Assembly: GCA_015233115.1 (NCBI GenBank)
Contig: JADFYJ010000003.1
Location: 40,536-104,535, forward strand
Source of the DNA: Candidatus Omnitrophota bacterium
GTDB taxonomy: Bacteria; Omnitrophota; Gorgyraeia; Zapsychrales; Zapsychraceae
DNA length: 64,000 nucleotides
Direction: 5' to 3'
Under the pieces are notes generated by a model that saw only the letters and a list, made by a program, of their open reading frames with translations, was not told the origin of the DNA and made no database searches. The position numbers were made by a program, and so were the translations under genes. How positions within the stretch are numbered: the first letter of the stretch is position 1; each line of letters begins with the position of its first letter. Shown one piece after another: positions 7,042 through 61,302 of the stretch.

Positions 7042-7064
7042 GGGTTACAATTTGGGTTACAAAA
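7042..7064 (+). promoter_or_regulatory. Putative recombinase arm-type binding repeat (GGGTTACAA x2), left copy; right copy at 15924-15946
   Basis: GGGTTACAATTTGGGTTACAAAA lies ~100 nt inside attL. GGATTACAATTTGGGTTACAAAT lies ~30 nt inside attR. Confidence 0.4.
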
Positions 7065-8095: not shown

Positions 8096-8144
8096 TTTTT
8101 TATGTGTTTAGCCGCAAGAATGTGAAGAAAGGAAACCCATTAGG

Positions 8145-8504: not shown

Positions 8505-8598
8505 CAATTGTATTTTTGGAAAAATTAAAATATAATGCATACAGTTTCGTGTGACGCAAGAATATGTTATACTAATTGTAAATTAGGGGGAGAAGTTT

Positions 8599-9255: not shown

Positions 9256-9256
9256 A

Positions 9257-9949: not shown

Positions 9950-10346
9950 GATTAATTTTTTGAATTTGGCTAAAGAACTTGATGAACGGCCTCCGGTGAC
10001 CGAAGAAAAAATTCGAACAGCTGTTAGTCGGGCGTATTATTATTTATTTTTAAAAATAAGAGCTTCCTTAGAGTCTGTAGGGTTAAAGTTCAAAAGGGCT
10101 GCCGAAGATCACGACGAAGTAAAAAATATGCTTTTAAAAACTGATATTACTGAAGCTCGAGCAGTTGGACTTTCTTTAGAAGAATTAAGAAGAAAAAGAA
10201 ATGATGCTGATTATGAAATGGAAATAGGAGGGTTTGGATTTGGATCAAACTCTGCTACTTTGGCAATTGCACAAGCGGAGAATGCAGCAGAACAATTTAA
10301 TCGCATAAATCGGAATTGTCTTAAAGAGAAAATTCGCGTAAATTAA
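9942..10346 (+). CDS. HEPN-like alpha-helical protein, cargo operon gene 3
   Basis: VSRAYYYLFL and LRRKRNDADYE resemble the HEPN Rx4-6H region, but Y sits in place of H. The ATG at 9942 overlaps the stop of gene 2. The track offers an alternative GTG at 9933. Confidence 0.4.
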   Translation: MDEINFLNLAKELDERPPVTEEKIRTAVSRAYYYLFLKIRASLESVGLKFKRAAEDHDEVKNMLLKTDITEARAVGLSLEELRRKRNDADYEMEIGGFGFGSNSATLAIAQAENAAEQFNRINRNCLKEKIRVN

Positions 10347-10377
10347 TTTTTAAAAATTATTTATACGCGCGCTTTGT

Positions 10378-10710
10378 TTATTTTCGATGTTCACAAATAT
10401 TTTTATAAATGCTAAGCAGTAGGTGGGCATCTTTGAAATTGTGTTTATTGAGAAGTCTTTTTAATTCTTGAGTAGATTTTGTCGTATCCTCGCTGCTTAT
10501 TACCTCCTCAAATAATTCATTTATTCTTACCTCTAAAGTCTCTGCTATTCGGGTGATGGTGTCTAGGGAAGGTTGTTTAATCCCTCGTTCGATTAATCCG
10601 ATATAGTTGTCGCTCGCTTCAATTTTCTCAGCTAATTGTGATTGAGTTAATCCCGCTTGTTCTCGAAAGAAACGAATCCGTTTGCCTAACATCCGGTAAG
10701 GTTTTTCCAT
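10378..10710 (-). CDS. XRE-family helix-turn-helix transcriptional regulator
   Basis: HTH_3 signature LTQSQLAEKIEASDNYIGLIERGIKQPSLDTITRIA. Divergent from the downstream cargo gene. Confidence 0.8.
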   Translation of the reverse strand: MEKPYRMLGKRIRFFREQAGLTQSQLAEKIEASDNYIGLIERGIKQPSLDTITRIAETLEVRINELFEEVISSEDTTKSTQELKRLLNKHNFKDAHLLLSIYKNICEHRK

Positions 10711-10883
10711 AGTAAACCTCCTTGCCAGATATGATATTCAAAAAAATTATTAAGACCACATACCATAAGTATGTTTTTTGCTGGAAAAAACTATCCATAA
10801 GTTATATTATTGTTAAAATTGGATAAATTTTTCCAATGTAAAGCGACAAAAAATAGAATTGGGTCTTAATAGAGGTTAGGAGT

Positions 10884-11837
10884 ATGCAAAAAAATATTGG
10901 TAAAATTTTAAAAGTTCCTTTACGCAATCTTTGGAAAAAAGAAGATAAGGATTTTACTAAATGGATGGAAGAAAATATTGATTATTTGAATGACATTTTG
11001 GATTTTGAAATTTCAATTGAATCGAGCGAAGAAAATGTTGGCCCCTTCCGCGTAGATCTTTACGGTGAAGATGGTTTTGGGCGAAAAGTTATTATTGAAA
11101 ATCAACTTGAAAAAAGCGACCACGATCATCTCGGTAAACTTTTGACATATTTAATCAATCTTGAAGCTAAAATTGCAATCTGGATTTCTAGCGATCCCGT
11201 TGAGGAGCACTCTGCTGTCATAGATTGGTTAAATGAAGTTGCCCCGGATGATATGCTTTTTTATTTAATTAAGATTGAGGCCATTGAAATAGAAGGGCAG
11301 TCTATGGCTGCCCCACTATTTACAATTGTTAAAGGGCCAACAGCTGAGGCTAAACAGTTGGGAAGTGAGAGGAAAGAATTTGCACAACGTCATATTGTAC
11401 GAAAGCAATTTTGGGAGCAACTTTTAGAGAGAAGTAAGAATAAAACAAAGTTGTTTTCCAATATTTCTCCGAGTATGGATCATTGGTTGTCTACGGGTAT
11501 TGGAAAATCCGGCATTGCATTGAGTTATTTGATTACAAATAAGTACGCTGGTTGTGATCTTTATTTTTCGAGAGGAAGGAATAAGGCAGACGATGAAAAT
11601 GTAAATAAAATTTGGTTTGATGAATTATACAAAAATAAGGATCGGATTGAAAAAGAATTTGGCGCGCCGTTGGATTGGCAGCGATTAAATGATAAATGGG
11701 CTTCAAGGATCGCGTGTCATTACCAAGGCTTGACTTTGCAAGATGAGAAAAATTGGCCTATGATTCAAGATAAATTGATTGAAACAGCAATTCGTATGGA
11801 AAAAGTCTTTGCGCCGTTTATAAAGCAATTGGAGTAA
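10884..11837 (+). CDS. PD-(D/E)xK nuclease-like protein (DUF4268-like pattern)
   Basis: The motif VDLYGED...VIIENQLEKSDHDHLGKLLTY fits D...E-x-K plus the conserved IENQLE.tDHDHLG block. Assigned from memory of the family. Confidence 0.4.
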   Translation: MQKNIGKILKVPLRNLWKKEDKDFTKWMEENIDYLNDILDFEISIESSEENVGPFRVDLYGEDGFGRKVIIENQLEKSDHDHLGKLLTYLINLEAKIAIWISSDPVEEHSAVIDWLNEVAPDDMLFYLIKIEAIEIEGQSMAAPLFTIVKGPTAEAKQLGSERKEFAQRHIVRKQFWEQLLERSKNKTKLFSNISPSMDHWLSTGIGKSGIALSYLITNKYAGCDLYFSRGRNKADDENVNKIWFDELYKNKDRIEKEFGAPLDWQRLNDKWASRIACHYQGLTLQDEKNWPMIQDKLIETAIRMEKVFAPFIKQLE

Positions 11838-11838
11838 A

Positions 11839-12744
11839 ATGAAAAAAATAGTTATTGGTCTTATATTATTTTTGTGCTTTCAAATAGCTATTGTTAAGGC
11901 AGAACCCAATATTTCCATCCCCGAAGATATTTTCAAAGCCTTGGATAATCTCAAAGACGACAATTTGCAATTGAACTGTACGGAAGCCGCCCTTTATCTT
12001 TATGATCGAAGAGAAAAAATTGTTGATATTTTAATAAATGTATTACCGAAACTTGATTGGCAAGGCCAAGATGTCATATTAAAAATACTTACTGAGACCG
12101 AAACCTATAGTCCGAATGAATATATTATAAAACTTATGCTTGAGCGGATTAAAGATGAAAGGAGTCCAAATATACGTAACGCTCACGACATTTATCATTA
12201 TGACTATATTCCTTACATTAGAAAATATGCGAAGCAGTTTAAGGACGAGCTTAGGACATATATAAAGATTGGAAATATTAGACAGCTCTGGGTTGTGACG
12301 CACATACTAGTCAAAGAAAATATTTTTGATGAAATAAGCGATGCTTATAGTCCTAAGTTGATGAATTTTGTAATCAAAAATTTGCGGGATGATAATATCG
12401 ATATGAATGCATCTTATTCGGCAAGAATTTGTTTTTTAATCGGTAAAAATAGTCTTCCGTACCTAAAACAAGAAGTGAAAGATGGCGACGCTCAATCCAA
12501 GGAAATAGCAAAGACTTTAGTCAGATATATTTCTGAAAATCGCCGTTTTAATCCGGATGATTTATGGGAATTTGTTGATGAGCTAAGTGTCTCGGGTGTT
12601 ACATTAGGAAGCACGTATTTAGACAGAATTGAGCGAGAAGGGGCCAGCAAATTGCCGGATTTTTGGTTTGGGTCAAATGTATCTAAACAGCCTAAATTTT
12701 TAATAAGTGGAAAATATACAAACAGACAGCAAATGAGCGAGTAA
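11839..12744 (+). CDS. Secreted hypothetical protein (signal peptide)
   Basis: N-terminus MKKIVIGLILFLCFQIAIVKA. Confidence 0.5.
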   Translation: MKKIVIGLILFLCFQIAIVKAEPNISIPEDIFKALDNLKDDNLQLNCTEAALYLYDRREKIVDILINVLPKLDWQGQDVILKILTETETYSPNEYIIKLMLERIKDERSPNIRNAHDIYHYDYIPYIRKYAKQFKDELRTYIKIGNIRQLWVVTHILVKENIFDEISDAYSPKLMNFVIKNLRDDNIDMNASYSARICFLIGKNSLPYLKQEVKDGDAQSKEIAKTLVRYISENRRFNPDDLWEFVDELSVSGVTLGSTYLDRIEREGASKLPDFWFGSNVSKQPKFLISGKYTNRQQMSE

Positions 12745-12750
12745 TTAAGA

Positions 12751-13431
12751 ATGAAAAGGATATTGATATTTATCATTTTTTTATTTGTTTCAAGCGTATC
12801 TGCCGCACAAGAACTATCGTCTGTAGAAAAGATTAAATTTCAAGAAAAGAAGGGAAGCTGTGAAGTCACTGGGGAGTATCCGCAATTTAAGATCCTAAAA
12901 ATTTCTGCCAACAAACTTAAAAATGTAAATAAAGAGATAAATGTGTTTGCTCGAAGTCTTTTTATAAAGTTTTTAACAAAAGATGCCATCGGACAACAAA
13001 TCAAAGAAGATTTCAAGACAAGCAGTAATGGGAATACGTTTGATATTGATTTTAATGTAATAAGGGCAGATACAAGGTACGTTAGCGTAATTTTTCAAAC
13101 TTATTTTATGCAAGAAAACGCACCTCACGGCGTTGGACATTTTTATGCGTTTAATTATGATGTCGAACATTCAAAAATTATTCATTTAAGTGATCTTTTT
13201 AAGCCGGGTACTGACTATTTAAAACAACTTCGGGGTTTTTGTAATCGCGATCTTGAAAAACAATTAGGGAACGGGTTTTATGATAAGGACGCTGTAAATG
13301 ATAGTACACAATTTACTTTTGACCAAGAAAGTTTAATTATTCATTTTAGTGCTTATGAAGTTGCTTGCTATGCTGCTGGTATGCCAGAAGTCAAAATTTC
13401 ATTTAAGAAGCTGATAGGGCTTAAAGAATGA
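12751..13431 (+). CDS. Secreted protein, DUF3298/DUF4163 (RsiV C-terminal-like) family guess
   Basis: Signal peptide. The ...APHGVGHFYAFNYDV...IHLSDLF pattern resembles DUF3298. Confidence 0.4.
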   Translation: MKRILIFIIFLFVSSVSAAQELSSVEKIKFQEKKGSCEVTGEYPQFKILKISANKLKNVNKEINVFARSLFIKFLTKDAIGQQIKEDFKTSSNGNTFDIDFNVIRADTRYVSVIFQTYFMQENAPHGVGHFYAFNYDVEHSKIIHLSDLFKPGTDYLKQLRGFCNRDLEKQLGNGFYDKDAVNDSTQFTFDQESLIIHFSAYEVACYAAGMPEVKISFKKLIGLKE

Positions 13432-13604
13432 GAATTTGTGGCTGTTAAAAAAAGGGTATCAAAAAGTCCTGTATGAAATTAGCCGATTTATGGCTGTTTC
13501 CAAAACGAACGTTTTTTAAACATTTGGAGAGAATGTTGGTAGAGGTGAGGACGGGCTCAATTATAGCGGTGTGTTATAACGGATGACAGTATAAACAATA
13601 ATAG

Positions 13605-14048
13605 ATGCGAGGTGAAGAAATGAAAATCATTGTCATTGCTTTATTGTCAGTATTTTTAATTGGCTGTTCGGCTGCATATTGGAATCAGGTAGCGGAAAAT
13701 ATGCGGAACAACCCGTATCATCCTCCTCAATATCAATCTCCCCAACAAAATAATCAGCCGTCTATGATTGACCAGTATCATCAAATGCAACAACAAACGT
13801 ATCAAAATCAATATCAACAACAACAGTTACAATTACAGCAACAGCAAATGCAGTTACAGCAACTACAAATACAAGCTCAACAGCGACAGCAGCAGCAACA
13901 AATTGGTCAATATTTAATGCAGCCTTTGTCCCAATATCATCCGTTAAATGTCCCCAATAACGTACCAGAACAGTCGGGAAGGGTAACAACACATTGTACT
14001 TCAGCATCGATAAACGGGGGAGGAGGAATGGATTGTACCTCTTATTAA
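13605..14048 (+). CDS. Gln-rich lipoprotein
   Basis: Lipobox LIGC. Long poly-Q/L region. The true start may be the ATG at 13620 (MKIIV). Confidence 0.5.
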   Translation: MRGEEMKIIVIALLSVFLIGCSAAYWNQVAENMRNNPYHPPQYQSPQQNNQPSMIDQYHQMQQQTYQNQYQQQQLQLQQQQMQLQQLQIQAQQRQQQQQIGQYLMQPLSQYHPLNVPNNVPEQSGRVTTHCTSASINGGGGMDCTSY

Positions 14049-14149
14049 TTAACAAACAAAATTAATCAGTCGTATCAGTTATTTCGGGAAAAGCTCTTCC
14101 GCTTCATTAATTTTAGAAAATATTTTTTTGTTTATGAGACATAAAGAAA

Positions 14150-14641
14150 TTAGGATGGCTTTCGGCTGTCCTTTATTGCTTCTGTAAGTCCTAAATCTTC
14201 ACAATGATTTTTTAAAACCTCTTCGCCCTCTTTGGTTAAATCCAATAAAATTTGTTTATTTTTAGTGTTTGGCATTAAAGATATTTGCGCTTTCAAGTTT
14301 TTAAATATTGAAAGGGCTTGAATAAGACTTGAATACATTGGCAGATTCAAAATCTGTTTCGACAAAGATTTTTTAACATCTTTTAGATCAAAAGGGAAAG
14401 ACCAATTGACGTAGGGGGCTGTTTCTTTGTCATCTAAGACATTAGCAAGGCTAATTGCAATAGGGTAAGATGGCTTTTGTTTGGAGGCTTCTAACCTAGA
14501 AAGATAGCCTTCTGTTATACCGACTTGTTTTGCGACTTCGAGCAAGGATAGGCCTTTATCCATACGAATTTTCCTAATTCTTTGGCCCATCGTTTTGACA
14601 TCTTTTGGATAATCTGATTTTCTCATACGTTTATAATCCAC
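14150..14641 (-). CDS. CI-like XRE-family repressor of the element
   Basis: N-terminal HTH LSLLEVAKQVGITEGYLSRLE plus a C-terminal domain. Divergent from xis-int and shares an operator region with it. Confidence 0.7.
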   Translation of the reverse strand: MDYKRMRKSDYPKDVKTMGQRIRKIRMDKGLSLLEVAKQVGITEGYLSRLEASKQKPSYPIAISLANVLDDKETAPYVNWSFPFDLKDVKKSLSKQILNLPMYSSLIQALSIFKNLKAQISLMPNTKNKQILLDLTKEGEEVLKNHCEDLGLTEAIKDSRKPS

Positions 14642-14642
14642 A

Positions 14643-14718
14643 TTTCTTACCTACTTGTCAAGAAAATAGTTTACAAAAGGGAAATATTGGGGTATAATCT
14701 TACTTGTTAGGTAAGAAA
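14643..14718. promoter_or_regulatory. Divergent switch region: 11-bp inverted repeat TTTCTTACCTA / TAGGTAAGAAA flanking a sigma70-like promoter (TTTACA-17-TATAAT with TG extension) driving xis-int
   Basis: -35 at 14670-14675 and -10 at 14693-14698 with a 17-bp spacer. The inverted-repeat arms are at 14643-14653 and 14708-14718. Confidence 0.45.
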
Positions 14719-14739
14719 CAATAAAAAAGGAGTGTCAAA

Positions 14740-14919
14740 ATGGGTGATTTTATGACGGTTCAAGAAATAGCGGCTAAAGTTAGGAAGGCGACAAAAACAA
14801 TTTATCATTACGTCGAAACTGAAGTAATTCCGGCGAATTTAATTATCCGAGTTGGCAACTCAATTCGTATGCGACCTTCGGATTTTGAAAAGTGGATTGA
14901 AGGACAGCGAGGCAGATAA
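14740..14919 (+). CDS. xis: Excisionase / AlpA-like small DNA-binding protein (HTH_17)
   Basis: 59 aa. MTVQEIAAKVRKATKTIYHYVE fits a MerR-type HTH. SD AAAAAGGAG. Immediately upstream of the integrase. Under 60 aa, so not in the track. Confidence 0.6.
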   Translation: MGDFMTVQEIAAKVRKATKTIYHYVETEVIPANLIIRVGNSIRMRPSDFEKWIEGQRGR

Positions 14920-14920
14920 A

Positions 14921-15919
14921 GTGGCGCATTTTCGTAAAAGAGATAATGGGTTTTACTATGCTTATTGGAAAGAAAAACGTTCTAATGGGTTATGGTACAC
15001 AATGGCTAAAGCATTAAAGACTAAAAATAAATTTGTTGCTCAAAAACGGTTTAATAATTTATTCGCCGAAGATTTGGGAGAAGTTAAAGAGTGTTATGTT
15101 GAAGATTGGGTAGAGCTTTTAAAGCGAAGCTTGGGTACAGAAGACTTAGATTCCAAAACTACAACCAAATATATTTTTCACGCCGAACGATTTATTGGTT
15201 TTTTTAATGGTAGGGTCAGGAAAATGAGCGATTTTAGACACGAACACATTATTGAGTTCATAAATAATTTAAATCAGTCCAATTATTCAAAGAGCACGGT
15301 TGCCGGTTACGGGCGAAGTTTACGAAAAATGTTTAACATTGCTTTGGACTTAGAATATGTCCGCAAGAGTCCAATGAAGAGGTTTAAAGTAGGCAAAATG
15401 GAACAAAGACAAAGATTCTTTAATCCATCGGAGATAATTAAGATACTAGAAGTTGCTAAGGAAGATCAATTTCAATACGCACTTGTTTTGTACTCATTAC
15501 AGACGGGTTTTCGAATTGAAGAGGTTGTGGATTCCTTCTGGGAAAACATTAACCATACAAACAGAACGATTACAGTGATAGGAAAAGGAAAAAAATCCCG
15601 GCGTCAAAAGATTCCGGCGTTAGCATACGAAGCTATAATGAAATTGAATGGTAAATGGCCTACGCTTTTTGGTAAGCAACAAAAGCAGTTGTATCGCGAT
15701 GTAAAGGTTGTTTTAGCAAAAGCTGACGTAAAAGGGTCGCCGCACGTCTTTCGGGACTCCTATGCTACATATTCGATTAAAATAATGCCTTTAAGCACGT
15801 TACGGGAGAGGATGGGGCATAGTAGCTTGCTTCAGACCGATAAATATACGCACGCATTAAATTCGGAAGTTGACCCAGAAGTAATGAAATATTTTGAAGA
15901 TTGGCAAATTCAGAGGTAA
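14921..15919 (+). CDS. int: Tyrosine recombinase / phage integrase
   Basis: C-terminal catalytic residues ...R...HVFRDSYAT...GHSSLLQTDKYTH carry the R, H-x-x-R and Y. The GTG start is coupled to the xis stop. The track's ATG at 14852 would overlap xis by 68 nt. Confidence 0.8.
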   Translation: MAHFRKRDNGFYYAYWKEKRSNGLWYTMAKALKTKNKFVAQKRFNNLFAEDLGEVKECYVEDWVELLKRSLGTEDLDSKTTTKYIFHAERFIGFFNGRVRKMSDFRHEHIIEFINNLNQSNYSKSTVAGYGRSLRKMFNIALDLEYVRKSPMKRFKVGKMEQRQRFFNPSEIIKILEVAKEDQFQYALVLYSLQTGFRIEEVVDSFWENINHTNRTITVIGKGKKSRRQKIPALAYEAIMKLNGKWPTLFGKQQKQLYRDVKVVLAKADVKGSPHVFRDSYATYSIKIMPLSTLRERMGHSSLLQTDKYTHALNSEVDPEVMKYFEDWQIQR

Positions 15920-15973
15920 TTATGGATTACAATTTGGGTTACAAATGGCTAGTTTTAGGTGAAAATAGTATGA

Positions 15974-16022
15974 ACGGAAGATTCTCAGTCTTTAAACACG
16001 GGTCCGAATCCCGTTGGGGCTA
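15974..16022 (+). repeat. attR core: 49-bp copy of the tRNA-Glu 3' end
   Basis: Identical to 6892-6940. Confidence 0.85.
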
Positions 16023-16028
16023 CTAAAT

Positions 16029-16063
16029 AAAAGGGACTGCTTTGTGCAGTCCCTCTTTATTTA
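16029..16063. terminator. Bidirectional rho-independent terminator, probably the original tRNA-Glu terminator displaced by the island
   Basis: Stem GGGACTGC/GCAGTCCC with loop TTTGT. Flanked by A-rich sequence 5' and TCTTTATTT 3'. Confidence 0.6.
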
Positions 16064-18927: not shown

Positions 18928-19386
18928 ATGAAGCGAGTTTGTTTATTAATTTTATTATGCGTTGGTCTTTATGGGTGCGTGACAGTTGAGAAAGAAGATC
19001 GTCCGCCTGCAAATACCGCTGAGCACAAACAATTGATACCTGTTAATTTAATTCGACCGGGCATGAGTTCAGCAGAAGTAAAATCTGTATTGGGAAATAA
19101 TATGGTGATCGGATATCAAAAAAAGGACAAAACAGGGATTTATGAACCCATTAATATGGCGATCCCTTTAAAAAGCGAAGATTTTAAGAGAGCTCAAGAA
19201 AAATATCGAGCTGATTTTTATTATGTGGAGGTGAGATTACCAGACGGGATTATTTCTGACGAAGAAATAACGCCCGTTGTTTTCAAAAATGATTTGGTGG
19301 TGGGGATCGGTTGGGATTTTTACAAGAGTTTAAAAATAGGGGACAGCGCCCTATTTCTCAAGGATAAAAAAAATGATGAGAAATAG
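18928..19386 (+). CDS. Lipoprotein, hypothetical
   Basis: Lipobox LYGC. The C-terminus (IGDSALF) is encoded by the palindromic repeat element. Confidence 0.5.
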   Translation: MKRVCLLILLCVGLYGCVTVEKEDRPPANTAEHKQLIPVNLIRPGMSSAEVKSVLGNNMVIGYQKKDKTGIYEPINMAIPLKSEDFKRAQEKYRADFYYVEVRLPDGIISDEEITPVVFKNDLVVGIGWDFYKSLKIGDSALFLKDKKNDEK

Positions 19387-19402
19387 GGCGCTGTCCCCTA
19401 TT
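19335..19402. repeat. Palindromic repeat element copy A (22-bp arms AATAGGGGACAGCGCCCTATTT / AAATAGGGCGCTGTCCCCTATT, 24-bp spacer)
   Basis: The arms are a perfect reverse complement. It spans the lipoprotein stop and the trmB start. Confidence 0.75.
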
Positions 19403-20314
19403 TTGGTGGATTTTGACAGTTTCCCCAGGCCGTTAAACTGGCCGGAGATTTTTGGCAGGCCGGGAAAAATTGTCGTCGAGATCGGCTTTGGCATGGGCGA
19501 GGTTCTGATCCGGGAAGCGGGAAAAGATCCTCAGGTTAATTTTATCGGCATTGAAGAGCATTGGACGCGTATCACCCGAACCATGACAGGTATTTCTCGT
19601 CAACAGGGTGTGGTTGGAGGATTGGATAACATCCGGATTTTGAAGTTAGACGCATGGGTGGCTTTTGAGCGGTTGTTTTCTCCGCAGAGCATTGATCATA
19701 TTTTTTGCTTGTTTCCATGTCCGTGGCCAAAAGAAAAACACGAAAAACACCGTTTATTCTCTCAAAAATTTTTACGCTTAGTAAATAGCCGCCTGAAAAC
19801 GGGCGCGGCGCTGCGGATTGTTACGGATTTTAGGCCTTTTTACGATTGGGTGCTCAGTCAGAATGTGGATGCCGGATTTGCTTCTGCGGTTACGGCAACA
19901 CTTGAACCGCAATTTAATACTAAGTTTGAAAAAAAATGGGCGGCGCAAGGACAGGAAAAATTTTTCGAAATTATTTTGGAAAAGCAAAAACATATCGAGG
20001 TGCCGGTTGAGGAGGACAAGGAGTTGAAGGTTTACAAATTAAAAAATTTTGATCATAAGAAATTCGTGTTTCAGGATCACATTGGAGAGGTCACCGTGAT
20101 TTTAAAAGGATTTTTTTATGATGCTGAACAAGAAAAAGCTCTGGTTCAGCTTTTGGTGGCAGAAGAACAGATCACCCAGTATTTTTGGGCTATGATTGGG
20201 AAGCGTAAAAATGATTGGTTTCTTCAAAAAGTGGAAGGCCAAAGGTTTTTTGCGACGCCGGGAATCACGTTGGCGTTAGATTTAGTTTATCAGGCAGTAG
20301 AAAAAATAGCATAG
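19373..20314 (+). CDS. trmB: tRNA (guanine-N7)-methyltransferase with C-terminal extension
   Basis: Motifs VVEIGFGMGE and FIGIEEH. N-terminus MMRNRALSPIL is encoded by the repeat element. Confidence 0.7.
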   Translation: MMRNRALSPILVDFDSFPRPLNWPEIFGRPGKIVVEIGFGMGEVLIREAGKDPQVNFIGIEEHWTRITRTMTGISRQQGVVGGLDNIRILKLDAWVAFERLFSPQSIDHIFCLFPCPWPKEKHEKHRLFSQKFLRLVNSRLKTGAALRIVTDFRPFYDWVLSQNVDAGFASAVTATLEPQFNTKFEKKWAAQGQEKFFEIILEKQKHIEVPVEEDKELKVYKLKNFDHKKFVFQDHIGEVTVILKGFFYDAEQEKALVQLLVAEEQITQYFWAMIGKRKNDWFLQKVEGQRFFATPGITLALDLVYQAVEKIA

Positions 20315-22572: not shown

Positions 22573-22789
22573 TAAAAAATATCGGGAGTGAGCGCTTTTT
22601 TGTCAGAAGATATAAAAGCCTCGCTCCTTTATATTTAGTTTATGGTAATCCCGCTACGGCCGCTGGGTCGCGGCTTTGCCTGACCGGCAAACTACGCGTT
22701 GCTTTAGCTTCGCGGGATAAATTCGTGCGGCTGACTTGATGTCGCTATAAATCGCTCCATAAGTCAGGCACTCATAATAAGGACTTATT

Positions 22790-24619: not shown

Positions 24620-24629
24620 TTTTGACGAG

Positions 24630-24657
24630 TATGTAGTATGTGGCATGTAGCATGTAG
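24630..24657 (+). repeat. Heptamer tandem repeat (TATGTAG TATGTGG CATGTAG CATGTAG) followed by a conserved AAAAACGATTGRTG box
   Basis: Starts 11 nt after the glmS stop. Related arrays at 32424-32451, 42963-42983 and 61161-61181. Confidence 0.7.
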
Positions 24658-24710
24658 TGAAAAACGATTGATGTGAAAAACGAATAATCAAAAATCGAAA
24701 AACCAGTAAC

Positions 24711-32404: not shown

Positions 32405-32423
32405 AAAACAGAAATTAGGGGAG

Positions 32424-32451
32424 TATGTCGTGCGTAGTATGTGGTATGTGG
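32424..32451 (+). repeat. Heptamer tandem repeat (TATGTCG TGCGTAG TATGTGG TATGTGG)
   Basis: Lies 20 nt after the stop of the preceding gene. Confidence 0.6.
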
Positions 32452-32610
32452 TTGTTGAAAATTTTCACCCTTTGGGTGAAGAAAAATTTTTATTCGGAAT
32501 TGGGGGGGGAAGTTTTTTAAAAAATTGGTGCCGGCTAGCATTATTTTGGGATATAATAATAAAATTCAGATAAATTCCCGCAAGTCAGGCACTCATTTAT
32601 AGGAGGCAGT

Positions 32611-35325: not shown

Positions 35326-36764
<1,439 letters not shown>

Positions 36765-39834: not shown

Positions 39835-40695
39835 ATGTTTAACTATACGGGAGGGTTTGTGAATAAACGTAATTTAATTATCGCAGGGATCGCTGTGATC
39901 ATCGTGGCTTTGATTTGGCTGGGTGTGGCTAAAAAACACGCCGAATCTGTGCCGGTAGTTGAAGCCGCTTCAAGCACGACTGAAAAGAATTCTTCAGCCC
40001 GGGATATGTATCAAAAAGCCGTTGAACTGCAAAAAACCGGCAAACAAGAAGAAGCTAAAAAAGTTTATCAAAATATAATGACTGAGCATCCTGATTTTGA
40101 GCAGATCGAGACTGTTCAAACTTCATTAGGGTCATTGAATGTGGAGCAAATTTTTTCCAAAAAAATGATTGATGGTAAAACGGTAGAGTATGAAATTGCT
40201 CCGGGAGATTCATTAGCCAAGATCGCTAAAAAATTTGGGACAACGATGTCTTTAGTCAAGCGTAGTAATGGCATGAAAACAGATACAGTCCGTTTGGGTC
40301 AAAAGTTGAGGATATGGACGGGTAAATTTAACATTTTGGTCAACAAGGCGCAAAATGTTTTGATGCTCAAGGAAGGCAATGAGGTTGTTAAAGTTTACCG
40401 CGTCTCTACTGGAAAAGAAAATTCAACACCTGTGGGAACATATAAAATCAAGGTCAAACAGGTGAATCCAGTTTGGTATAGCAAAACAGGAGTGTATCCT
40501 CCAGAAAGTCCTGAGAACCAATTGGGAAGCCGCTGGATGGGATTTGACCTTGAAAGTTATGGAATTCATGGTACTATAGCCCCCGATAAAATTGGCCAGC
40601 AAGTTACCGCTGGATGTGTACGTATGGCCAATCCGGATGTAGAAGAATTGTACGATTTAGTTCCGCAAGGGACGGAAGTGCGGATAATTGATTAA
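39835..40695 (+). CDS. LysM-domain L,D-transpeptidase (YkuD/ErfK family)
   Basis: LysM: YEIAPGDSLAKIAKKFG. Catalytic GIHGT...TAGCVRM. Confidence 0.8.
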   Translation: MFNYTGGFVNKRNLIIAGIAVIIVALIWLGVAKKHAESVPVVEAASSTTEKNSSARDMYQKAVELQKTGKQEEAKKVYQNIMTEHPDFEQIETVQTSLGSLNVEQIFSKKMIDGKTVEYEIAPGDSLAKIAKKFGTTMSLVKRSNGMKTDTVRLGQKLRIWTGKFNILVNKAQNVLMLKEGNEVVKVYRVSTGKENSTPVGTYKIKVKQVNPVWYSKTGVYPPESPENQLGSRWMGFDLESYGIHGTIAPDKIGQQVTAGCVRMANPDVEELYDLVPQGTEVRIID

Positions 40696-40697
40696 AA

Positions 40698-40916
40698 GTA
40701 ACCGAGTAACCGAGTAACCGAGTAACCGAGTAACAGAGCAAAAGCGAACGGGGACAAAAATTTAAAGAACACGATAAAAGAAGACTCGGAAATAAAAACA
40801 TAAAAGCTCGGATAATCGGAATATAATTAATTTTTTGTAATTTTTAGTTTTTTTGCGAATCGTTTTTTGTTGTTTCTTTGTTACTTTGTTACTCTGTTAC
40901 TTTGTCACTTTGTTAC
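40698..40916. repeat. Inverted arrays of GTAACCGAG/GTAACAGAG units (5 units, 40698-40742) and their complements TTTGTTAC-type 8-mers (5 units, 40877-40916) bracketing the accA upstream region
   Basis: Direct reading. The left array starts 3 nt after the stop of the transpeptidase gene. A second, related element lies at 49971-50106. Confidence 0.65.
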
Positions 40917-40937
40917 TATTAAAATTGGAGACAGTGA

Positions 40938-41888
40938 ATGGCTATTTTGGAATTTGAAAAACCTATATATCAGATTGAAGAAAAAATTCAGGAATTGCGG
41001 GATTTGGGAGAAAAAAATTCAGCAGGTATTTCACCGGAAATCAAGCGGTTACATAAAAAGCTTGAGCAATTGAAAAAAGAGATTTATGGGAAGTTGACGG
41101 TATGGCAGAGAATTCAAGTTGCCCGCCATCCGGATCGTCCTTATATGCTGGATTATGTCCGTGCCATGATGACGGATTTTGTGGAATTGCATGGGGACCG
41201 GCAATTCGCGGATGATTTTGCGATGCTCGCTGGTTTTGCCATGTTTGAAGGTGAAAAAGTGATGGTGATTGGCCAGCAAAAAGGCCGTGATACCAATGAA
41301 AATATTAAACGTAATTTTGGCTGTGCTCATCCGGAAGGATACCGGAAAGCTATGCGGATGATGCGGTTGGCTGAAAAATTTCACGTTCCCATTTTAGTTT
41401 TTGTGGATACTCCAGGTGCGTATCCGGGCGTAGGAGCTGAAGAGCGCGGGCAGGCTCAGGCCATTGCGGAAAATTTACGGGATATGATGCTGATTAAGAC
41501 ACCTATTATCGCGACTGTGATTGGTGAAGGCGGCAGCGGCGGTGCTTTAGGGATAGGTGTAGCGGATCGAGTGTTTATATTGCAACATGCCTATTATTCT
41601 GTTATTTCACCGGAAGGGTGCGCATCCATTCTTTGGAGAAATGCGGTCAAAGCTCCGGATGCCGCAGAAGCGTTAAAACTTATGGGGGAAGATTTAGTAA
41701 AATTTAAAGTTATCGACGGGATCATTCCTGAGCCGTCCGGCGGAGCGCATCGTGATCCGGAATTGGTTTGCAGCGGTATGCGGAAATCCTTTCTTGAAAA
41801 TTTGGCAGCGCTCAAAGCCTTATCCACCCAAGATCTCCTGGATAAACGCTACCAGCGGTTTCGTCAAATTGGCGAATTTATAGAATAG
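40938..41888 (+). CDS. accA: Acetyl-CoA carboxylase carboxyltransferase alpha subunit
   Basis: LDFEKPIYQIEEKIQEL...ARHPDRPY...FVDTPGAYPG. Confidence 0.9.
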   Translation: MAILEFEKPIYQIEEKIQELRDLGEKNSAGISPEIKRLHKKLEQLKKEIYGKLTVWQRIQVARHPDRPYMLDYVRAMMTDFVELHGDRQFADDFAMLAGFAMFEGEKVMVIGQQKGRDTNENIKRNFGCAHPEGYRKAMRMMRLAEKFHVPILVFVDTPGAYPGVGAEERGQAQAIAENLRDMMLIKTPIIATVIGEGGSGGALGIGVADRVFILQHAYYSVISPEGCASILWRNAVKAPDAAEALKLMGEDLVKFKVIDGIIPEPSGGAHRDPELVCSGMRKSFLENLAALKALSTQDLLDKRYQRFRQIGEFIE

Positions 41889-41955
41889 AAACAGGTAAAG
41901 AGGCTATAGGCTATAGGAAAAAAAGCGATTGGTGATTAAATAACGACAAAAACGA

Positions 41956-42969
41956 ATGATAAAAAAAGATATAAAAGATTTATCGCTTAACGAGTTTGGT
42001 TCTTTCCTGCAAAAGCATCAATACCCGCCATTTCGTGCGGCCCAAATTTGGAAATGGCTTTTTCAAAAAGCCGAGCTAGATATAGACCGCATGGTTAATT
42101 TACCTGCTACGCTGCGTCAATTATTAAACGAACATTTTTGTTTTCATTCCTTAACAGAACGGTCAACGCAGACGTCATCCGACGGCACTATAAAAAAATT
42201 ATTCGTATTACCTGACGGGGAATTAATTGAGACAGTGGTGATTCCGGCTGAAGGACGGAAAACTGTCTGCGTGTCAACGCAGGCTGGCTGCAAATTCGGG
42301 TGTAAATTCTGCGCGAGCGGATTAAAAGGATTCAAACGCAGCCTGACTGCAGGAGAAATTTGTGAGCAAATTTTATTAATGGGGCCGGATGTGACACATG
42401 TCGTGTTTATGGGTGTAGGTGAACCTATGGATAACTATGAGAATGTGATGAAAGCGGTACACACGATTAACGCGAAAGAAGGCATGGGTATTGCGGCCCG
42501 GCGGATTACGATTTCAACCTGCGGCATTATTCCCGGTATCGAACGCATGGCTAAAGAAGGGTTGCAGATTGAATTAGCCGTTTCTTTGCACGCTTCGAAT
42601 GATCAATTACGCAATGAATTTATGCCGGTTAATAAAAGATATTCTCTCAAGGATCTTATCAAGTGTTGCCGGCAATATACAGAAAAAACAAACCGTCAAG
42701 TGACCTTTGAATATATTTTAATAAAAGATGTGACGTGCATAGAAAAGGCGGCGGAAGAATTGGGACGGCTGTTAAAGGGAATGTTGTGTAAATTAAATTT
42801 AATTGTTTATAACCCGGTTCCGGAATTTAATTTTCAATCTGTTTCGAAAAAAGAAATTGCCTTGTTTCAAAAATGGTTGACGCAGTACGGTATTCATTCT
42901 ACTGTGCGTGCCTCCCGTGGCCAGGACGTGTCAGCCGCGTGTGGACAGTTAAGAAGAAATAGTATGTAG
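41956..42969 (+). CDS. rlmN: 23S rRNA m2A2503 / tRNA m2A37 methyltransferase (radical SAM)
   Basis: CVSTQAGCKFGCKFCASG radical-SAM cluster. Confidence 0.9.
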   Translation: MIKKDIKDLSLNEFGSFLQKHQYPPFRAAQIWKWLFQKAELDIDRMVNLPATLRQLLNEHFCFHSLTERSTQTSSDGTIKKLFVLPDGELIETVVIPAEGRKTVCVSTQAGCKFGCKFCASGLKGFKRSLTAGEICEQILLMGPDVTHVVFMGVGEPMDNYENVMKAVHTINAKEGMGIAARRITISTCGIIPGIERMAKEGLQIELAVSLHASNDQLRNEFMPVNKRYSLKDLIKCCRQYTEKTNRQVTFEYILIKDVTCIEKAAEELGRLLKGMLCKLNLIVYNPVPEFNFQSVSKKEIALFQKWLTQYGIHSTVRASRGQDVSAACGQLRRNSM

Positions 42970-42983
42970 TATGTCGTATGTAG
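42963..42983 (+). repeat. Heptamer tandem repeat (TATGTAG TATGTCG TATGTAG) overlapping the rlmN stop codon
   Basis: The first unit contains the TAG stop of rlmN. Confidence 0.6.
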
Positions 42984-45523: not shown

Positions 45524-45537
45524 GTTATGGCGCTTTA

Positions 45538-45687
45538 GTCGTAGGGGCGATCTCCTGATCGCCCGAACTATAAAGATTTATAAATTTAACATTCTAGGGC
45601 AGTTGTTTTGATTTGGTCTGAAATGTTTAATTGAAATATAAAAACAAATATTTTTTAAGCGGGCGATCGGGAGATCGCCCCTACGAC
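45538..45687. repeat. MITE-like element: 28-bp inverted repeats (GTCGTAGGGGCGATCTCCTGATCGCCCG / its complement with 1 mismatch) around a 94-bp AT-rich core
   Basis: The arms are at 45538-45565 and 45660-45687. Each arm is itself a hairpin (GGGCGATC-N4-GATCGCCC). Confidence 0.5.
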
Positions 45688-45693
45688 AAAAAT

Positions 45694-47334: not shown

Positions 47335-49842
47335 TTGTCGAATATGTCATACAATACCAATGAAATTCAAAGAATAGAAACCAAGTGGCAGAAGATTTGG
47401 GATGAGAAAAAGATATTTAAATCCGGAGTAGATAATGGCCGGGAAAAATATTATGTCTTAGAAATGTTCCCTTATCCGTCGGGGAAAATACATATGGGCC
47501 ATGTGCGGAATTATACGATTGCGGATGTCATTGCGCGGTTTCGCATGATGCAGGGATTGAATGTACTGCATCCGATGGGCTATGACGCTTTTGGCCAGCC
47601 GGCTGAAAATGCGGCCATCAAACGCGGGGTTGATCCGGCTGAATGGACTTATGGCTGTATTGATGAAATGACGCATGAATTAAAACGCATGGGTTTTTCC
47701 TATGATTGGGATCGGAGTTTGTCGACTTGCGACGCGGAATATTACAAATGGAATCAATGGATATTCTTGAAGATGTTCGAGCGTGGTTTGGCGTATAAAA
47801 AAGAGTCGCCGGTGAATTGGTGCCCGAGCTGTGACACGACGCTGGCGAATGAAGAAGTTATAAATGGCGCGTGCTGGCGATGCAAAAGTGAAGTGCAACA
47901 AAAAAATTTAAGCCAATGGTATTTGAAGATTACGGATTACAGCGAGCGGTTGCTCAAAGATTTAGATTTATTGACGCAATGGCCGGAACGCGTCGTGACT
48001 ATGCAGAAAAACTGGATCGGCAAAAGTTTTGGCGTAGAAATATTCTTTAGAATAGGGGACAGCGCCCTATTTCAAGAAGGAAATAGGGCGCTGTCCCCTA
48101 TTCTTAAAGTTTTTACCACCAGGCCGGATACGATTTTCGGCGCAACGTATGTGGTTTTAGCTCCTGAACATCCTTTGGTTGATGCGATCACAACGCCGGC
48201 GAACAAAGCGTCTGTAGAGGCTTTTAAAAAAGAAGTGGCGGGTGTCAGTAAAAGCGAACGGGTATCTGGCGATTTAGAGAAAAAAGGAATTTTTACCGGT
48301 AGTTATGTGGTCAATCCGGTGAATCAGGAATTGATACCGGTATGGATCGCGGATTATGTATTAATGGATTACGGTACCGGCGCGATCATGGCTGTTCCGA
48401 CGCATGATCAACGTGATTTCGAATTTGCTAAAAAACATCAGTTGCCGATGAAAATTGTTATTCAAGATCCGGCGTGGCCTGATTTAAAAGTTGAACAAAT
48501 GGATGCTGCTTATGTAGAGCAAGGGAATTTGACAGGCTCTGCCCAATTTGACGGTATGAATAATCAGGACGCAATGCAGGCGATTGGCGAATGGATGGAG
48601 AAATCCAATATTGGCAAAACCACGGTGCATTGGCGCTTGCGTGATTGGCTGATTTCCCGCCAGCGGTATTGGGGCACGCCAATCCCGATGATTTATTGTG
48701 ATACCTGCGGGGTAGTTCCGGTGCCGGAAAATCAATTGCCGGTTGAACTGCCGAAAAAAATTCAGATTACCGGACAGGGCGGAAGTCCATTAGCGTATTG
48801 CCAGGATTTTGTTAATGTGAAATGCCCGAAATGCGGTAAGCCTGCCCGCCGGGAAACCGATACCATGGCCACCTTTTTTGATTCGTCGTGGTATTATTTA
48901 CGTTTTTGTTCAGCGCGGAATTCGTCTCAGGTTTTTGATAAGCAGGAAGCCAAGTATTGGATGCCGGTTGACCAATACATCGGCGGGATTGAACACGCGA
49001 TCCTGCATTTATTGTATTCCCGTTTCTTCACGAAATTTTTTAAAGATTTGGGATTGGTTGATTTTGATGAACCGTTTGTGCGTCTCTTGACCCAGGGTAT
49101 GGTGTTAAAAGACGGGGAAGTCATGTCTAAGTCCCGCGGCAACACGGTTGACCCGGATACAATTTTAGTGAAATACGGCGCTGATCCTTTGCGCGTATGT
49201 ATTTTGTTTGCCGCGCCTCCGGAAGATCAGCTGGAGTGGAGCGACGGCGCAGTGGACGGTTCGTGGAAATTTTTAAATCGTTTGGATCGATTGGCTGATG
49301 AACGATTCAAAGGGGTAAAGGTGGGTTATGATTTTAAAACTTTATCCGGCGCGGCTCAGGAATTAGAGCGCGAGCGCAACGCGACCATTAAAAAAGTGAC
49401 TGGTGATTTGGAAACGTATAAATTTAATACGGCAGTCAGCGCCATGATGATCATGTTAAATTCGATCGAGAAATTTGTGCCGCAAAATGAAATCGATCAA
49501 GCGGTATTCGACCAGACTTTGCGCTCCTTCGTATTGATGTTGGCGCCGTATGCCCCGCATTTGTGCGAAGAGCTTTGGCAGAAAATGGGATCAGATGTGA
49601 CGAGTGTCAGCCAAGTCAAATGGCCGCAATATGATGAGGCTTCATTACAGCGTGCCGTGGTTGAAGTCGTTGTGCAGATCAACGGAAAACTGCGTTCCAA
49701 ACTGGAAGTCCCTGTTGAGCTCAACGAAGCCCAAGTCCGCGAATTAGCTTTAAAAGATGAAAAAATTCAAAAGTGGGTTGAAGACAAGCCGGTGCGGAAA
49801 TTTATTTATGTGCAGGGAAGATTGATTAATATAGTCGTATAA
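47335..49842 (+). CDS. leuS: Leucine--tRNA ligase carrying an in-frame palindromic-repeat insertion
   Basis: HMGH and KMSKS (VMSKSRGN) motifs. 835 aa. Confidence 0.95.
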   Translation: MSNMSYNTNEIQRIETKWQKIWDEKKIFKSGVDNGREKYYVLEMFPYPSGKIHMGHVRNYTIADVIARFRMMQGLNVLHPMGYDAFGQPAENAAIKRGVDPAEWTYGCIDEMTHELKRMGFSYDWDRSLSTCDAEYYKWNQWIFLKMFERGLAYKKESPVNWCPSCDTTLANEEVINGACWRCKSEVQQKNLSQWYLKITDYSERLLKDLDLLTQWPERVVTMQKNWIGKSFGVEIFFRIGDSALFQEGNRALSPILKVFTTRPDTIFGATYVVLAPEHPLVDAITTPANKASVEAFKKEVAGVSKSERVSGDLEKKGIFTGSYVVNPVNQELIPVWIADYVLMDYGTGAIMAVPTHDQRDFEFAKKHQLPMKIVIQDPAWPDLKVEQMDAAYVEQGNLTGSAQFDGMNNQDAMQAIGEWMEKSNIGKTTVHWRLRDWLISRQRYWGTPIPMIYCDTCGVVPVPENQLPVELPKKIQITGQGGSPLAYCQDFVNVKCPKCGKPARRETDTMATFFDSSWYYLRFCSARNSSQVFDKQEAKYWMPVDQYIGGIEHAILHLLYSRFFTKFFKDLGLVDFDEPFVRLLTQGMVLKDGEVMSKSRGNTVDPDTILVKYGADPLRVCILFAAPPEDQLEWSDGAVDGSWKFLNRLDRLADERFKGVKVGYDFKTLSGAAQELERERNATIKKVTGDLETYKFNTAVSAMMIMLNSIEKFVPQNEIDQAVFDQTLRSFVLMLAPYAPHLCEELWQKMGSDVTSVSQVKWPQYDEASLQRAVVEVVVQINGKLRSKLEVPVELNEAQVRELALKDEKIQKWVEDKPVRKFIYVQGRLINIVV
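48051..48102. repeat. Palindromic repeat element copy B inside the leuS coding sequence (same 22-bp arms as copy A, 8-bp spacer)
   Basis: Encodes RIGDSALFQEGNRALSPIL between GVEIFF and KVFTTRPDT, i.e. ahead of the CP1 editing domain. Confidence 0.75.
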
Positions 49843-49852
49843 ACCGTTGGAC

Positions 49853-49899
49853 CACCGCGTCGGTGATCCAAAGGTCACCGACGCGGTGATTTTGTTTGG
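49853..49899 (+). terminator. Rho-independent terminator of leuS built from a CACCGCGTCGGTGA palindrome
   Basis: Perfect 14-bp stem with 8-nt loop, then ATTTTGTTTGG. Confidence 0.7.
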
Positions 49900-49970
49900 C
49901 TTTGACATTTAGATTTTTTTTCATATAATGAAACTATCTCGCAGTTCCTGATCAACCCCCGCAAAAAATA

Positions 49971-50106
49971 GTAACATAGTAACCGAGTGACAGAGTAACA
50001 GAGTAAAAGCAAAAAAACAAAAAGAAAAAAACCTGTGTTTTTTGTTCTAATGTTTTTATGCCAATAGTTTTTTCTCTGTTACTCTGTCACTCGGTTACTC
50101 GGTTAC
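49971..50106. repeat. Second inverted array of GTAACNGA octamers (left arm GTAACATA GTAACCGA GTGACAGA GTAACAGA, mirrored right arm) upstream of comEA
   Basis: A ~135-bp imperfect palindrome with a ~65-bp A/T-rich centre. Confidence 0.65.
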
Positions 50107-50125
50107 TTTCGAAACGGGCAAGCAT

Positions 50126-50464
50126 ATGTTTTTTCTTAATAAGCAGGAATCAGTCACGCTGATTGTGGTTTGCGGCGTGATTATCGGGGGTTCTGTTCTG
50201 CAGTTTGTTTCCACGCATTTCCCTTATCAATGGCGGCAGTTGGATTTTATTTCCGGGAATAAATGTTTTATTAAGGTTAATGTCAATCAGGCGACACCGG
50301 AAGAATTGGATAAGGTTCCGAATTTAGGATTGAGTACGGCTGGTCGTATTGTTTCTTACCGCAATGAACATGGCCCTTTTAAGTCCATCGAAGAAATTAA
50401 AGACATTCCGGACATCCGCAGTAAAAATTTTGAAGAATTTCAGCCTTACCTGGAGGTCAAATGA
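50126..50464 (+). CDS. comEA: ComEA-like DNA-binding helix-hairpin-helix protein
   Basis: VNVNQATPEELDKVPNLGLSTAGRIVSYR. Confidence 0.8.
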   Translation: MFFLNKQESVTLIVVCGVIIGGSVLQFVSTHFPYQWRQLDFISGNKCFIKVNVNQATPEELDKVPNLGLSTAGRIVSYRNEHGPFKSIEEIKDIPDIRSKNFEEFQPYLEVK

Positions 50465-61151: not shown

Positions 61152-61160
61152 TAATAACAG

Positions 61161-61181
61161 CATGTCGCATGTTGCATGTAG
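61161..61181 (+). repeat. Heptamer tandem repeat (CATGTCG CATGTTG CATGTAG) followed by an AAAAAACGATTGGTG box
   Basis: Lies 10 nt after the lptE stop. Confidence 0.6.
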
Positions 61182-61302
61182 AAAAAACGATTGGTGAAAA
61201 GCGAGACATGTCGCAGATAATAAATATAAACAGCAATCGCAATAGAATTTATTTTCGCCCTGAGCCAATGGCCAGGGCGTTCTTATATAGTCGGGAGAAG
61301 AT

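Follow-up and report, generated by a model that had tools for sequence, protein, structure and literature searches.

Inverted octamer arrays upstream of accA and comEA in an Omnitrophota genome as probable insertions of a dispersed intergenic repeat module

Octamer palindromes at two gene junctions

In a stretch of 64,000 nucleotides from a Candidatus Omnitrophota bacterium (GenBank assembly GCA_015233115.1, contig JADFYJ010000003.1, positions 40,536 to 104,535 of the forward strand; here called the window), two intergenic gaps hold inverted arrays of a short tandem repeat. Our analysis covered these 64 kb of the host genome, and coordinates refer to the window unless a contig label is given. 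The first element (locus 1) lies between ldt and accA, within a conserved ldt-accA-rlmN row, and the second (locus 2) lies between leuS and comEA (Table 1). The gene names accA and comEA, proposed in an initial annotation made from the letters of this DNA, were upheld, with ldt, rlmN, leuS, and comEC alongside.

Both elements consist of four to five tandem GTAACNGA units per arm, mirrored by TCNGTTAC units, and form imperfect palindromes of 219 nt (locus 1) and 136 nt (locus 2). This agrees with the initial annotation, which had described five units mirrored by five at locus 1, a mirrored array at locus 2 (four units per arm by our count, with the GTGAC variant included in the mirror), and palindromes of about 135 to 220 bp. 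It had also left the unit as an octamer or nonamer. Tandem Repeats Finder (TRF) reads period 8 in all four arms (4.2 to 6.0 copies), so the octamer stands, and the ninth base of the supposed nonamer is the G that begins the next unit. The octamer has the consensus GTAAC(C/A)(G/A/T)A, in which a 2-fold symmetric GT-N-AC core is constant in every unit (8 to 10 cores per locus), and three of the eight positions vary freely between arms. The sequence GTRACNNNGTRAC has 14 matches in the window, all in locus 1 and locus 2, against a shuffle expectation of 0.06.

The two arms of locus 1 are each internally uniform and differ from one another at two positions per unit (CCGA versus CAAA); on the plus strand, the right arm reads TTTGTTAC, TTTGTTAC, TCTGTTAC, TTTGTCAC, TTTGTTAC. 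At both loci, the units decay toward the center of the palindrome. The edges of the locus 1 center hold the decayed units GCAAAAGC and GTTGTTTC, and the left arm of locus 2 continues into the decayed units GTAAAAGC, AAAAAAAC, and AAAAAGAA, in which TRF still reads period 8. Each of the three frames of the GTAAC-reading strand contains TAA or TGA, and this strand faces outward at both ends of the palindrome; the left arm of locus 1 has TAA in every frame. Two open reading frames (ORFs) of at least 60 amino acids touch locus 1 (40604 to 40801 on the minus strand and 40867 to 41073 on the plus strand), and none touches locus 2; we judged both to be spurious because they overlap the ldt and accA coding sequences.

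Self-complementarity is extensive at both loci. The inverted-repeat arms measure 57 nt with 75% complementarity at locus 1 and 39 nt with 92% complementarity at locus 2. The predicted sense-strand RNA folds reach −61.6 kcal/mol (z = −4.85 against shuffles) at locus 1 and −66.4 kcal/mol (z = −10.8) at locus 2, and the antisense strands reach −52.5 and −69.3 kcal/mol, respectively, so that both strands of both loci have predicted hairpins of −52 to −69 kcal/mol. Neither element matched an Rfam 15 family at gathering score. Plant and animal microRNA hairpin models that surfaced over positions 49957 to 50119 in a permissive Rfam scan scored far below threshold and were set aside as spurious.

Locus 1 begins 2 nt past the ldt stop codon and ends 21 nt before the accA ATG (40938), with a Shine-Dalgarno sequence (GGAGA, 40927 to 40931) in between. 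Locus 2 ends 19 nt before the comEA ATG (50126) and begins 128 nt past the leuS stop codon, beyond the leuS terminator and a promoter. The view that both elements start within a few nucleotides of an upstream stop codon thus holds for locus 1 and fails for locus 2. The promoter upstream of locus 2 matches the sigma-70 consensus at 12 of 12 positions, and its −10 box and the leader after it are kept in a related contig (L234). Since locus 2 lies downstream of this promoter, we infer that it is a segment of the comEA 5′ leader. No promoter was predicted within either element; a lone TATAAT in the center of locus 1 was rejected as a promoter, having no usable −35 sequence. The promoter and terminator scan returned nothing in or around locus 1, which is therefore presumably transcribed between ldt and accA. 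Nor did the terminator scan give a hit at either element, and the sense strand lacks the stem-plus-U-tract of a terminator. Together with the separate terminator upstream of locus 2 and the position of locus 1 inside a conserved gene row, this bears out the earlier statement that the elements are not simple terminators.

Table 1. Repeat elements, neighboring genes, and transcription signals, by window position
Feature	Position	Strand	Description
Locus 1 left arm	40698..40737	+	Five octamers: GTAACCGA four times, then GTAACAGA
Locus 1 center	40738..40876	+	A-rich, then T-rich; self-pairing in the predicted fold
Locus 1 inner motif	40853..40869	-	AAAAAACGATTCGCAA; adjoins right arm; same motif family as in the solo modules
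Locus 1 right arm	40877..40916	-	Minus-strand units GTAACAAA, GTGACAAA, GTAACAGA, GTAACAAA, GTAACAAA
Locus 2 left arm	49971..50002	+	Four octamers: GTAACATA, GTAACCGA, GTGACAGA, GTAACAGA
Locus 2 inner motif	50061..50074	-	GAAAAAACTATTGG; adjoins right arm
Locus 2 right arm	50075..50106	-	Four units, unit-by-unit mirror of left arm, GTGAC variant included
Solo module	24628..24674	+	AGYATGT, 4.4 copies, 8 nt past stop codon, then GAAAAACGATTGATGT
Solo module, accA-rlmN gap	41901..41935	+	AGGCTAT, 2.4 copies, then AAAAAGCGATTGGTGA
Solo module after lptE	61159..61197	+	GCATGTC, 2.9 copies, then AAAAAACGATTGGTGA
Heptamer array	42960..42983	+	TAGTATG, 3.4 copies; first TAG is the rlmN stop codon; no adjoining motif
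Heptamer array, AGTATGT type	32423..32452	+	About 19 nt past stop codon; no adjoining motif
ldt	39835-40695		LysM/YkuD L,D-transpeptidase; upstream of locus 1
accA	40938-41888		Downstream of locus 1
rlmN	41956-42969		Downstream of accA
leuS	47335-49842		Upstream of locus 2
leuS intrinsic terminator	49853..49898	+	Canonical; 16-bp GC-rich stem (49853-49888) plus T run; separate from the element
Sigma-70-type promoter	49902..49929	+	Perfect TTGACA-16-TATAAT, 12/12
comEA	50126-50464		Downstream of locus 2; then comEC

The repeat module in the window, in relatives, and in other genomes

Seven array loci were found in intergenic gaps of the window. Besides the two palindromes, these include four heptamer arrays of the AGYATGT type (at 24628, 32436, 42960, and 61159) and one AGGCTAT array (at 41901); each lies on the plus strand and begins 0 to 20 nt past the stop codon of a co-oriented gene. 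An A-rich motif with the consensus AAAAAACGATTGG(TGA) lies directly 3′ of three of the arrays, which have three unrelated units. The same motif occurs on the minus strand just inside the right octamer arm of both palindromes, and a decayed copy comes after the left arm of locus 1. At up to two mismatches, the 16-mer motif is found in the window only beside arrays, and it is not found in relatives. Locus 1 and locus 2 match at 19 of 22 positions in their inner right-hand regions (P ≈ 0.016). As one motif adjoins both octamer and heptamer arrays, the unit of the family is a tandem array plus the A-rich motif, and locus 1 and locus 2 are inverted dimers of this module. Every unit type contains a stop codon (TAA or TGA in GTRAC; TAG in AGTATGT and AGGCTAT), and with a period of 7 or 8, neither divisible by 3, three units suffice to close all three reading frames.

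We compared four array-bearing junctions with those of the nearest sampled relatives, in which AccA is 70 to 75% identical and LeuS is 82% identical (L234), and arrays were present at none of the four. The gene row of a chelatase (on the minus strand), DUF212, LysM-YkuD, accA, and rlmN is kept in six related contigs (L106, L107, and L110 to L113); their ldt-accA gaps are 23, 36, 40, or 64 nt long and hold no array, versus 242 nt here. The leuS-comEA gap of L234, the closest of these relatives, is 84 nt long and lacks the element. The accA-rlmN gap measures 67 nt here and 3 to 35 nt in relatives, except for about 240 to 250 nt in L110 to L112, and the module of this gap is absent from the relatives; the lptE-holA junction of L234 is likewise without a module. 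Arrays of the octamer type did not occur in L234 or in the other Omnitrophota loci examined. The short, array-free gaps of the relatives indicate that locus 1 and locus 2 are lineage-specific insertions. Locus 1 is flanked by a possible 6-bp duplication (ATTAAA, around AGTAAC...GTTACT); no direct repeat flanks locus 2, even with L234 as a proxy for the empty site.

The comEA leader of L234 retains the TATAAT box and GAAAC.TCGCAGTTCC..CAACCCC, after which a small stem-loop extends to the ATG. This stem-loop (L234 positions 12540 to 12592; CCCCTGT...ACAGGGG plus TTTTTT) stands directly before the comEA start codon, where the window has the octamer palindrome, and looks like an attenuator.

We also scanned a genome collection (one genome per species) with 2.6 copies of GTAACNGA, without control queries, and obtained at least 105 loci, with several genomes contributing more than one. 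Among the matches listed, Bacteroidota contributed more than any other phylum; the others included Planctomycetota, Acidobacteriota, Calditrichota, Chloroflexota, Cyanobacteria, Verrucomicrobiota, Actinomycetota, and Pseudomonadota. The arrays at these listed loci have many different units, predominantly of period 7 (63 arrays) or period 8 (120 arrays), with few of period 6, 9, or 10. About one-third of them have an inverted partner within 500 nt, mostly in the arrangement seen in the window, and their arms are often very unequal (9 versus 3, 4 versus 13, and 15 versus 3 units). For listed loci of other phyla with a G+C content of at most 50%, 58 of 63 arrays are intergenic; 21 of these 58 start no more than 30 nt past the stop codon of a co-oriented upstream gene, and 22 lie between convergent genes. 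Whole elements have been duplicated together with their unique spacer and flanks in some cases (L022/L030; L018/L019/L063; L013). At one orthologous intergenic site in two Bacteroidota species, which share 73% nucleotide identity over 3.6 kb, an inverted pair is present in both (L044, 4073 to 4141, 3 + 4 units; L089, 630 to 798, 15 + 3 units), so that the site is either long-lived or reused.

Our first reading of the genome scan, a cross-phylum family defined by GTAACNGA, was dropped. The scan was uncontrolled, and in a viral collection 2.6 copies of GTAACAGA gave 3 matches against 4 and 0 for two permuted octamers. Given the lack of an excess over these controls, we claim no sequence-specific family across phyla. 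The first viral scan could not serve as a census either, being swamped by a single phage family with a conserved 2.6-unit site. In these phage contigs (L114 to L231, about 45 kb; e.g., L116, 5079 to 5099), the conserved site GGTAACCGAGTAACCGAGTAACCCTGAC lies about 30 nt upstream of an ATG and makes up most of the 120 viral-collection matches; it may be a phage regulatory site. A metagenome scan with the inner motif TTTWTGCSAATMGTTTTTT gave at least 120 matches, and none of those listed was beside an array. We also considered foldback transposons in other genomes and rejected them, since, where inverted arrays are separated by kilobases (L013, L029, L101, L003, L041, L055, and L081), the genes enclosed are housekeeping genes and not transposases. 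Separately, L039 (4270 to 4450) and L080 (2764 to 2990), two MAGs that carry the labels of different phyla (Candidatus Didemnitutus and Ignavibacteria), have nearly identical array regions and flanks, which suggests a binning or labeling error or a recent transfer.

Origin of the elements

We consider it probable that each locus is a noncoding insertion made of two inverted copies of a dispersed module. This intergenic repeat would be selfish or neutral and prone to slippage, and its co-transcription would yield a long hairpin. The module would comprise a short tandem array of a stop-bearing unit of 7 to 8 nt (GTAACNGA at these loci), followed by the A-rich motif. Modules would spread by some copying process, and their arms would then lengthen, shorten, and homogenize independently by replication slippage. 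Insertions at gene ends would be tolerated owing to their own stop codons, which end any entering reading frame, and to the intact ribosome-binding site downstream. The ldt-accA element would be co-transcribed as an intercistronic segment and the comEA element as part of the 5′ leader, and the RNA hairpin may incidentally affect how the mRNA is processed or how stable it is. A dedicated regulatory function is not needed to explain the elements, and it is unlikely that they regulate accA or comEA.

Several observations weigh against this account. Its neutrality rests on the nonconservation of the elements, and no mobilizing enzyme was found in the 64-kb window. The persistence of an array pair at an orthologous Bacteroidota site would fit selection on RNA structure, as would the locus 1 sense fold, which is better than the antisense fold by 9 kcal/mol through G-U pairs. 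The inner sequences of the two loci are only modestly similar, with no significant similarity between their left-hand regions, and the target duplication is inconsistent, with ATTAAA at locus 1 and none at locus 2. Finally, the readable 64 kb contain only two palindromic copies and three solo modules. One motif accompanied by three unrelated array units, together with the preference for periods 7 and 8 in array-rich genomes, is not explained by plain slippage. An improbable but broader idea is that stop-bearing arrays of 7 to 8 nt are the signature of an undescribed process of DNA synthesis or movement that seeds gene ends in many phyla. Such a process could be a target-specific element that leaves a 7- to 8-bp duplication at each visit, or a step in which a polymerase or reverse transcriptase gives a small A-rich core element its simple-repeat head; the palindromic octamer dimers would then be one of its products.

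Correia and ERIC elements are reported to act as RNA processing or stability elements, and the hairpins described here could likewise be selected as RNA, serving as RNase III/RNase E processing sites or as 5′ stabilizers that uncouple or tune the downstream gene. The two elements are oriented alike relative to the gene downstream and stop 19 to 21 nt short of its start codon, their predicted folds are very stable, and a perfect promoter precedes locus 2; the better sense fold of locus 1, the small stem-loop at the same place in the L234 comEA leader, and the array pair kept in two Bacteroidota also point this way. We nevertheless regard a selected hairpin as rather unlikely, as the element is absent from the conserved junctions of every relative examined, locus 2 has no strand asymmetry (−66.4 versus −69.3 kcal/mol), and the arms of locus 1 are only 75% complementary and have each been homogenized separately. 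The closeness to the start codon, moreover, follows from insertion into a very short gap. The initial annotation had instead offered a family of miniature inverted-repeat transposable elements (MITEs), in the classical form of which a deletion derivative of a transposon, here with terminal inverted repeats built of octamers, is cut and pasted by a transposase encoded elsewhere in the genome. Part of that description stands: the elements are small (136 to 219 nt, arms of 39 to 57 nt), noncoding, palindromic insertions relative to related genomes, their inner motif is common to three more modules, locus 1 has the possible ATTAAA duplication, and other genomes contain whole-element duplications with spacer and flanks. 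Against it, locus 2 has no target duplication, none of 47 scanned window ORFs is a transposase of a known family, and the sole recombinases, a resolvase (7481 to 8095) and a tyrosine integrase (14852 to 15919), belong to an island 25 to 33 kb away. The arms behave as slippage-prone simple repeats, an inner motif common to solo modules with other units fits poorly with a fixed terminal-repeat sequence, and the genes between kilobase-distant inverted arrays elsewhere are housekeeping genes; a classical MITE thus seems unlikely to us. REP, BIME, and REPIN sequences were also rejected, as the arms contain no GTAG-headed palindromic unit and the scanned ORFs contain no Y1-transposase domain.

The other suggestion of the initial annotation, iteron-like binding sites, fared less well. 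A 2-fold symmetric GT-N-AC core repeated at 8-bp intervals, 8 to 10 times per locus, could be bound cooperatively, as in iterons, partition centromeres, or operators, and so control accA and comEA or organize the chromosome. Ribbon-helix-helix proteins use an 8-bp spacing, as MetJ does on tandem met boxes and ParG on parH. However, relatives that keep the genes do not keep the arrays at the junctions, accA and comEA are functionally unrelated, and the neighbors (ldt, accA, leuS, and comEA) include no regulator, replication, or partition gene. Three of eight unit positions drift between arms, unit numbers vary freely between arms and species, and the same inner motif pairs with unrelated units, among them heptamers without GTNAC, all of which makes binding sites quite improbable. 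A transcription terminator or bidirectional insulator between neighboring genes would agree with a long hairpin after a gene end, with the T runs that come after both hairpins on the minus strand (TTTT; TATTTTTT), and with the 22 of 58 intergenic arrays between convergent genes noted above. Yet the hairpins have no U-tract after them on the sense strand, no gene on the minus strand runs into either element, the canonical terminator of leuS already lies upstream of locus 2, and accA would have no predicted promoter if transcription ended at locus 1; this function is highly improbable. We give almost no credence to an inverton, in which a site-specific recombinase would flip a promoter between inverted repeats. 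The repeats do surround an A/T-rich 70 to 140 bp directly upstream of a gene, with a TATAAT hexamer in the center of locus 1, but no promoter is predicted within the elements and the single strong one, at locus 2, is outside the repeats, the nearest recombinase genes are those of the distant island, accA is an unlikely target of phase variation, and the arms consist of simple repeats in tandem, variable in length, and not of a recombinase core site.

Among known repeats, the TAACTGA heptamer direct repeats of Beggiatoaceae, Cyanobacteria, and Bacteroidetes (MacGregor 2015, PMC4679880) offer a close comparison. They are intergenic, bear stop codons in the forward orientation, are mixed with other heptamers, and are missing in close relatives with the same gene neighborhood; their function and spreading mechanism are unknown (PMC4679880). 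The arrays in the window resemble them in being short and intergenic at many gene junctions of one genome, in having stop codons in the unit that close all frames in the forward orientation, in the mixture of 7-nt units, and in the shorter, array-free gaps of relatives with the same neighborhood. The octamer itself can be written as G + TAACNGA, one base longer, with a common TAAC..GA core. They differ in that the period of the octamer arrays is 8 and not 7, position 6 is variable, and the strict TAACTGA unit is absent; in that inverted pairs form a long hairpin here, while only one indirect repeat was reported in BOGUAY; in that forward arrays come after stop codons here and TAACTGA repeats stand just upstream of start codons; and in the coupling to a conserved A-rich inner motif and the host phylum, Omnitrophota. 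A literature search for follow-up work on the TAACTGA repeats found none, and searches with the array sequence strings returned nothing relevant.

More generally, intergenic heptamer repeats are overrepresented in bacteria, and Xanthomonas and Nostoc have heptamer simple sequence repeats (SSRs), some of them in inverted pairs (Rehm 2015, PMC4692102; earlier work on short tandemly repeated repetitive [STRR] sequences and long SSRs by Mazel 1990 and Mrazek 2007, as cited in PMC4692102). As a class, cyanobacterial STRR heptamers and long SSRs (units of 5 to 11 nt, such as GGGAATC in Xanthomonas) are tandem repeats of an approximately 7-nt unit, overrepresented between genes and strain-specific in copy number, some of them inverted and able to form stem-loops or cruciforms, with no established function. 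The arrays studied here share with this class at least three head-to-tail copies, an intergenic position at several loci, and lineage specificity. They have another unit and period, lack G-quadruplex potential, decay toward the palindrome center, and are insertions into conserved operon junctions. We conclude that the elements are an octamer, palindromic, motif-coupled form of known intergenic 7- to 8-nt repeats and that this form is new.

Two further groups resemble the elements in outline. Correia/NEMIS, ERIC/IRU, RUP, and REPIN sequences are MITE-like palindromes that are transcribed with neighboring genes. Their terminal sequences are fixed, a defined target duplication is usual (TA for Correia), and a transposase is known or suspected (RAYT for REPIN). 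Like them, the window elements are small, noncoding, imperfect palindromes of 100 to 250 bp at dispersed intergenic sites, are probably co-transcribed as long RNA hairpins, and are present or absent between related lineages, as the others are between related strains; unlike them, they have arms of variable-number tandem octamers, an inconsistent target duplication, and no known enzyme. Eukaryotic foldback (FB) transposons have long inverted termini of short tandem repeats, with variable arms and inward degeneration. As these are eukaryotic, kilobase-sized, and in some cases coding, we draw an analogy only and imply no homology.

Intergenic tandem repeats of 7 to 8 nt are abundant in some bacteria, and their origin and function have been unexplained since the first cyanobacterial report in 1990. 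The window is a compact case, with filled and empty orthologous sites, solo and inverted-dimer forms side by side, and a clear transcriptional context (one element within a conserved gene row and the other in a leader that follows a perfect promoter). This makes the two loci a clean case for studying the origin of such repeats and renders two questions testable: how the modules copy, and whether they are passive riders or reshape the expression of operons through long RNA hairpins and stops in all frames. If they prove to be only selfish repeats, their recognition still has annotation value, as it guards against their being labeled as regulators, terminators, or small RNAs.

Other repeats and a probable island in the window

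Two further kinds of palindrome occur in the window. One is a repeat family with copies at 48046 to 48107 and 19333 to 19404, with 28-nt arms, (A)ATAGGGGACAGCGCCCTATTTC, that are 96 to 100% complementary. The first copy lies in frame within leuS, where it coincides with a 10-residue insertion (ALFQEGNRAL) that is absent from five related LeuS proteins, and the second lies at the junction of two ORFs. The copy in leuS recalls the Rickettsia palindromic elements, which insert into coding sequence. The other, at 45534 to 45691, directly upstream of the probable start of mnmA, has 46-nt arms with 83% complementarity around 66 A/T-rich nucleotides, and each arm has its own small palindrome, GGGCGATC-N4-GATCGCCC.

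The recombinases mentioned above belong to a low-G+C island at about 6890 to 16030 (32 to 36%, versus about 42%), bordered by 48-nt direct repeats that match a tRNA 3′ end (about 6890 to 6940 and about 15975 to 16024). Its genes encode the serine resolvase, two HTH proteins, DUF4268, DUF3298, and the tyrosine integrase, and it is probably an integrated mobile element.

In the region 35326 to 35420, a tetranucleotide tract, (AAGC)11, lies just after an ATG at 35326 that, with 11 units, is out of frame with the downstream ORF (35409 to 36764). This ORF encodes a signal-peptide-like stretch and a Laminin_G_3 domain, and either 12 or 9 AAGC units would restore the frame. The site looks like a classical phase-variable contingency locus in the OFF state. 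Lastly, a leader motif, AAGTCAGGCACTCAT(A/T)(A/T)TA, is common to positions 22760 to 22789 and 32575 to 32610, in each case just upstream of a gene (at 22790 and 32611).

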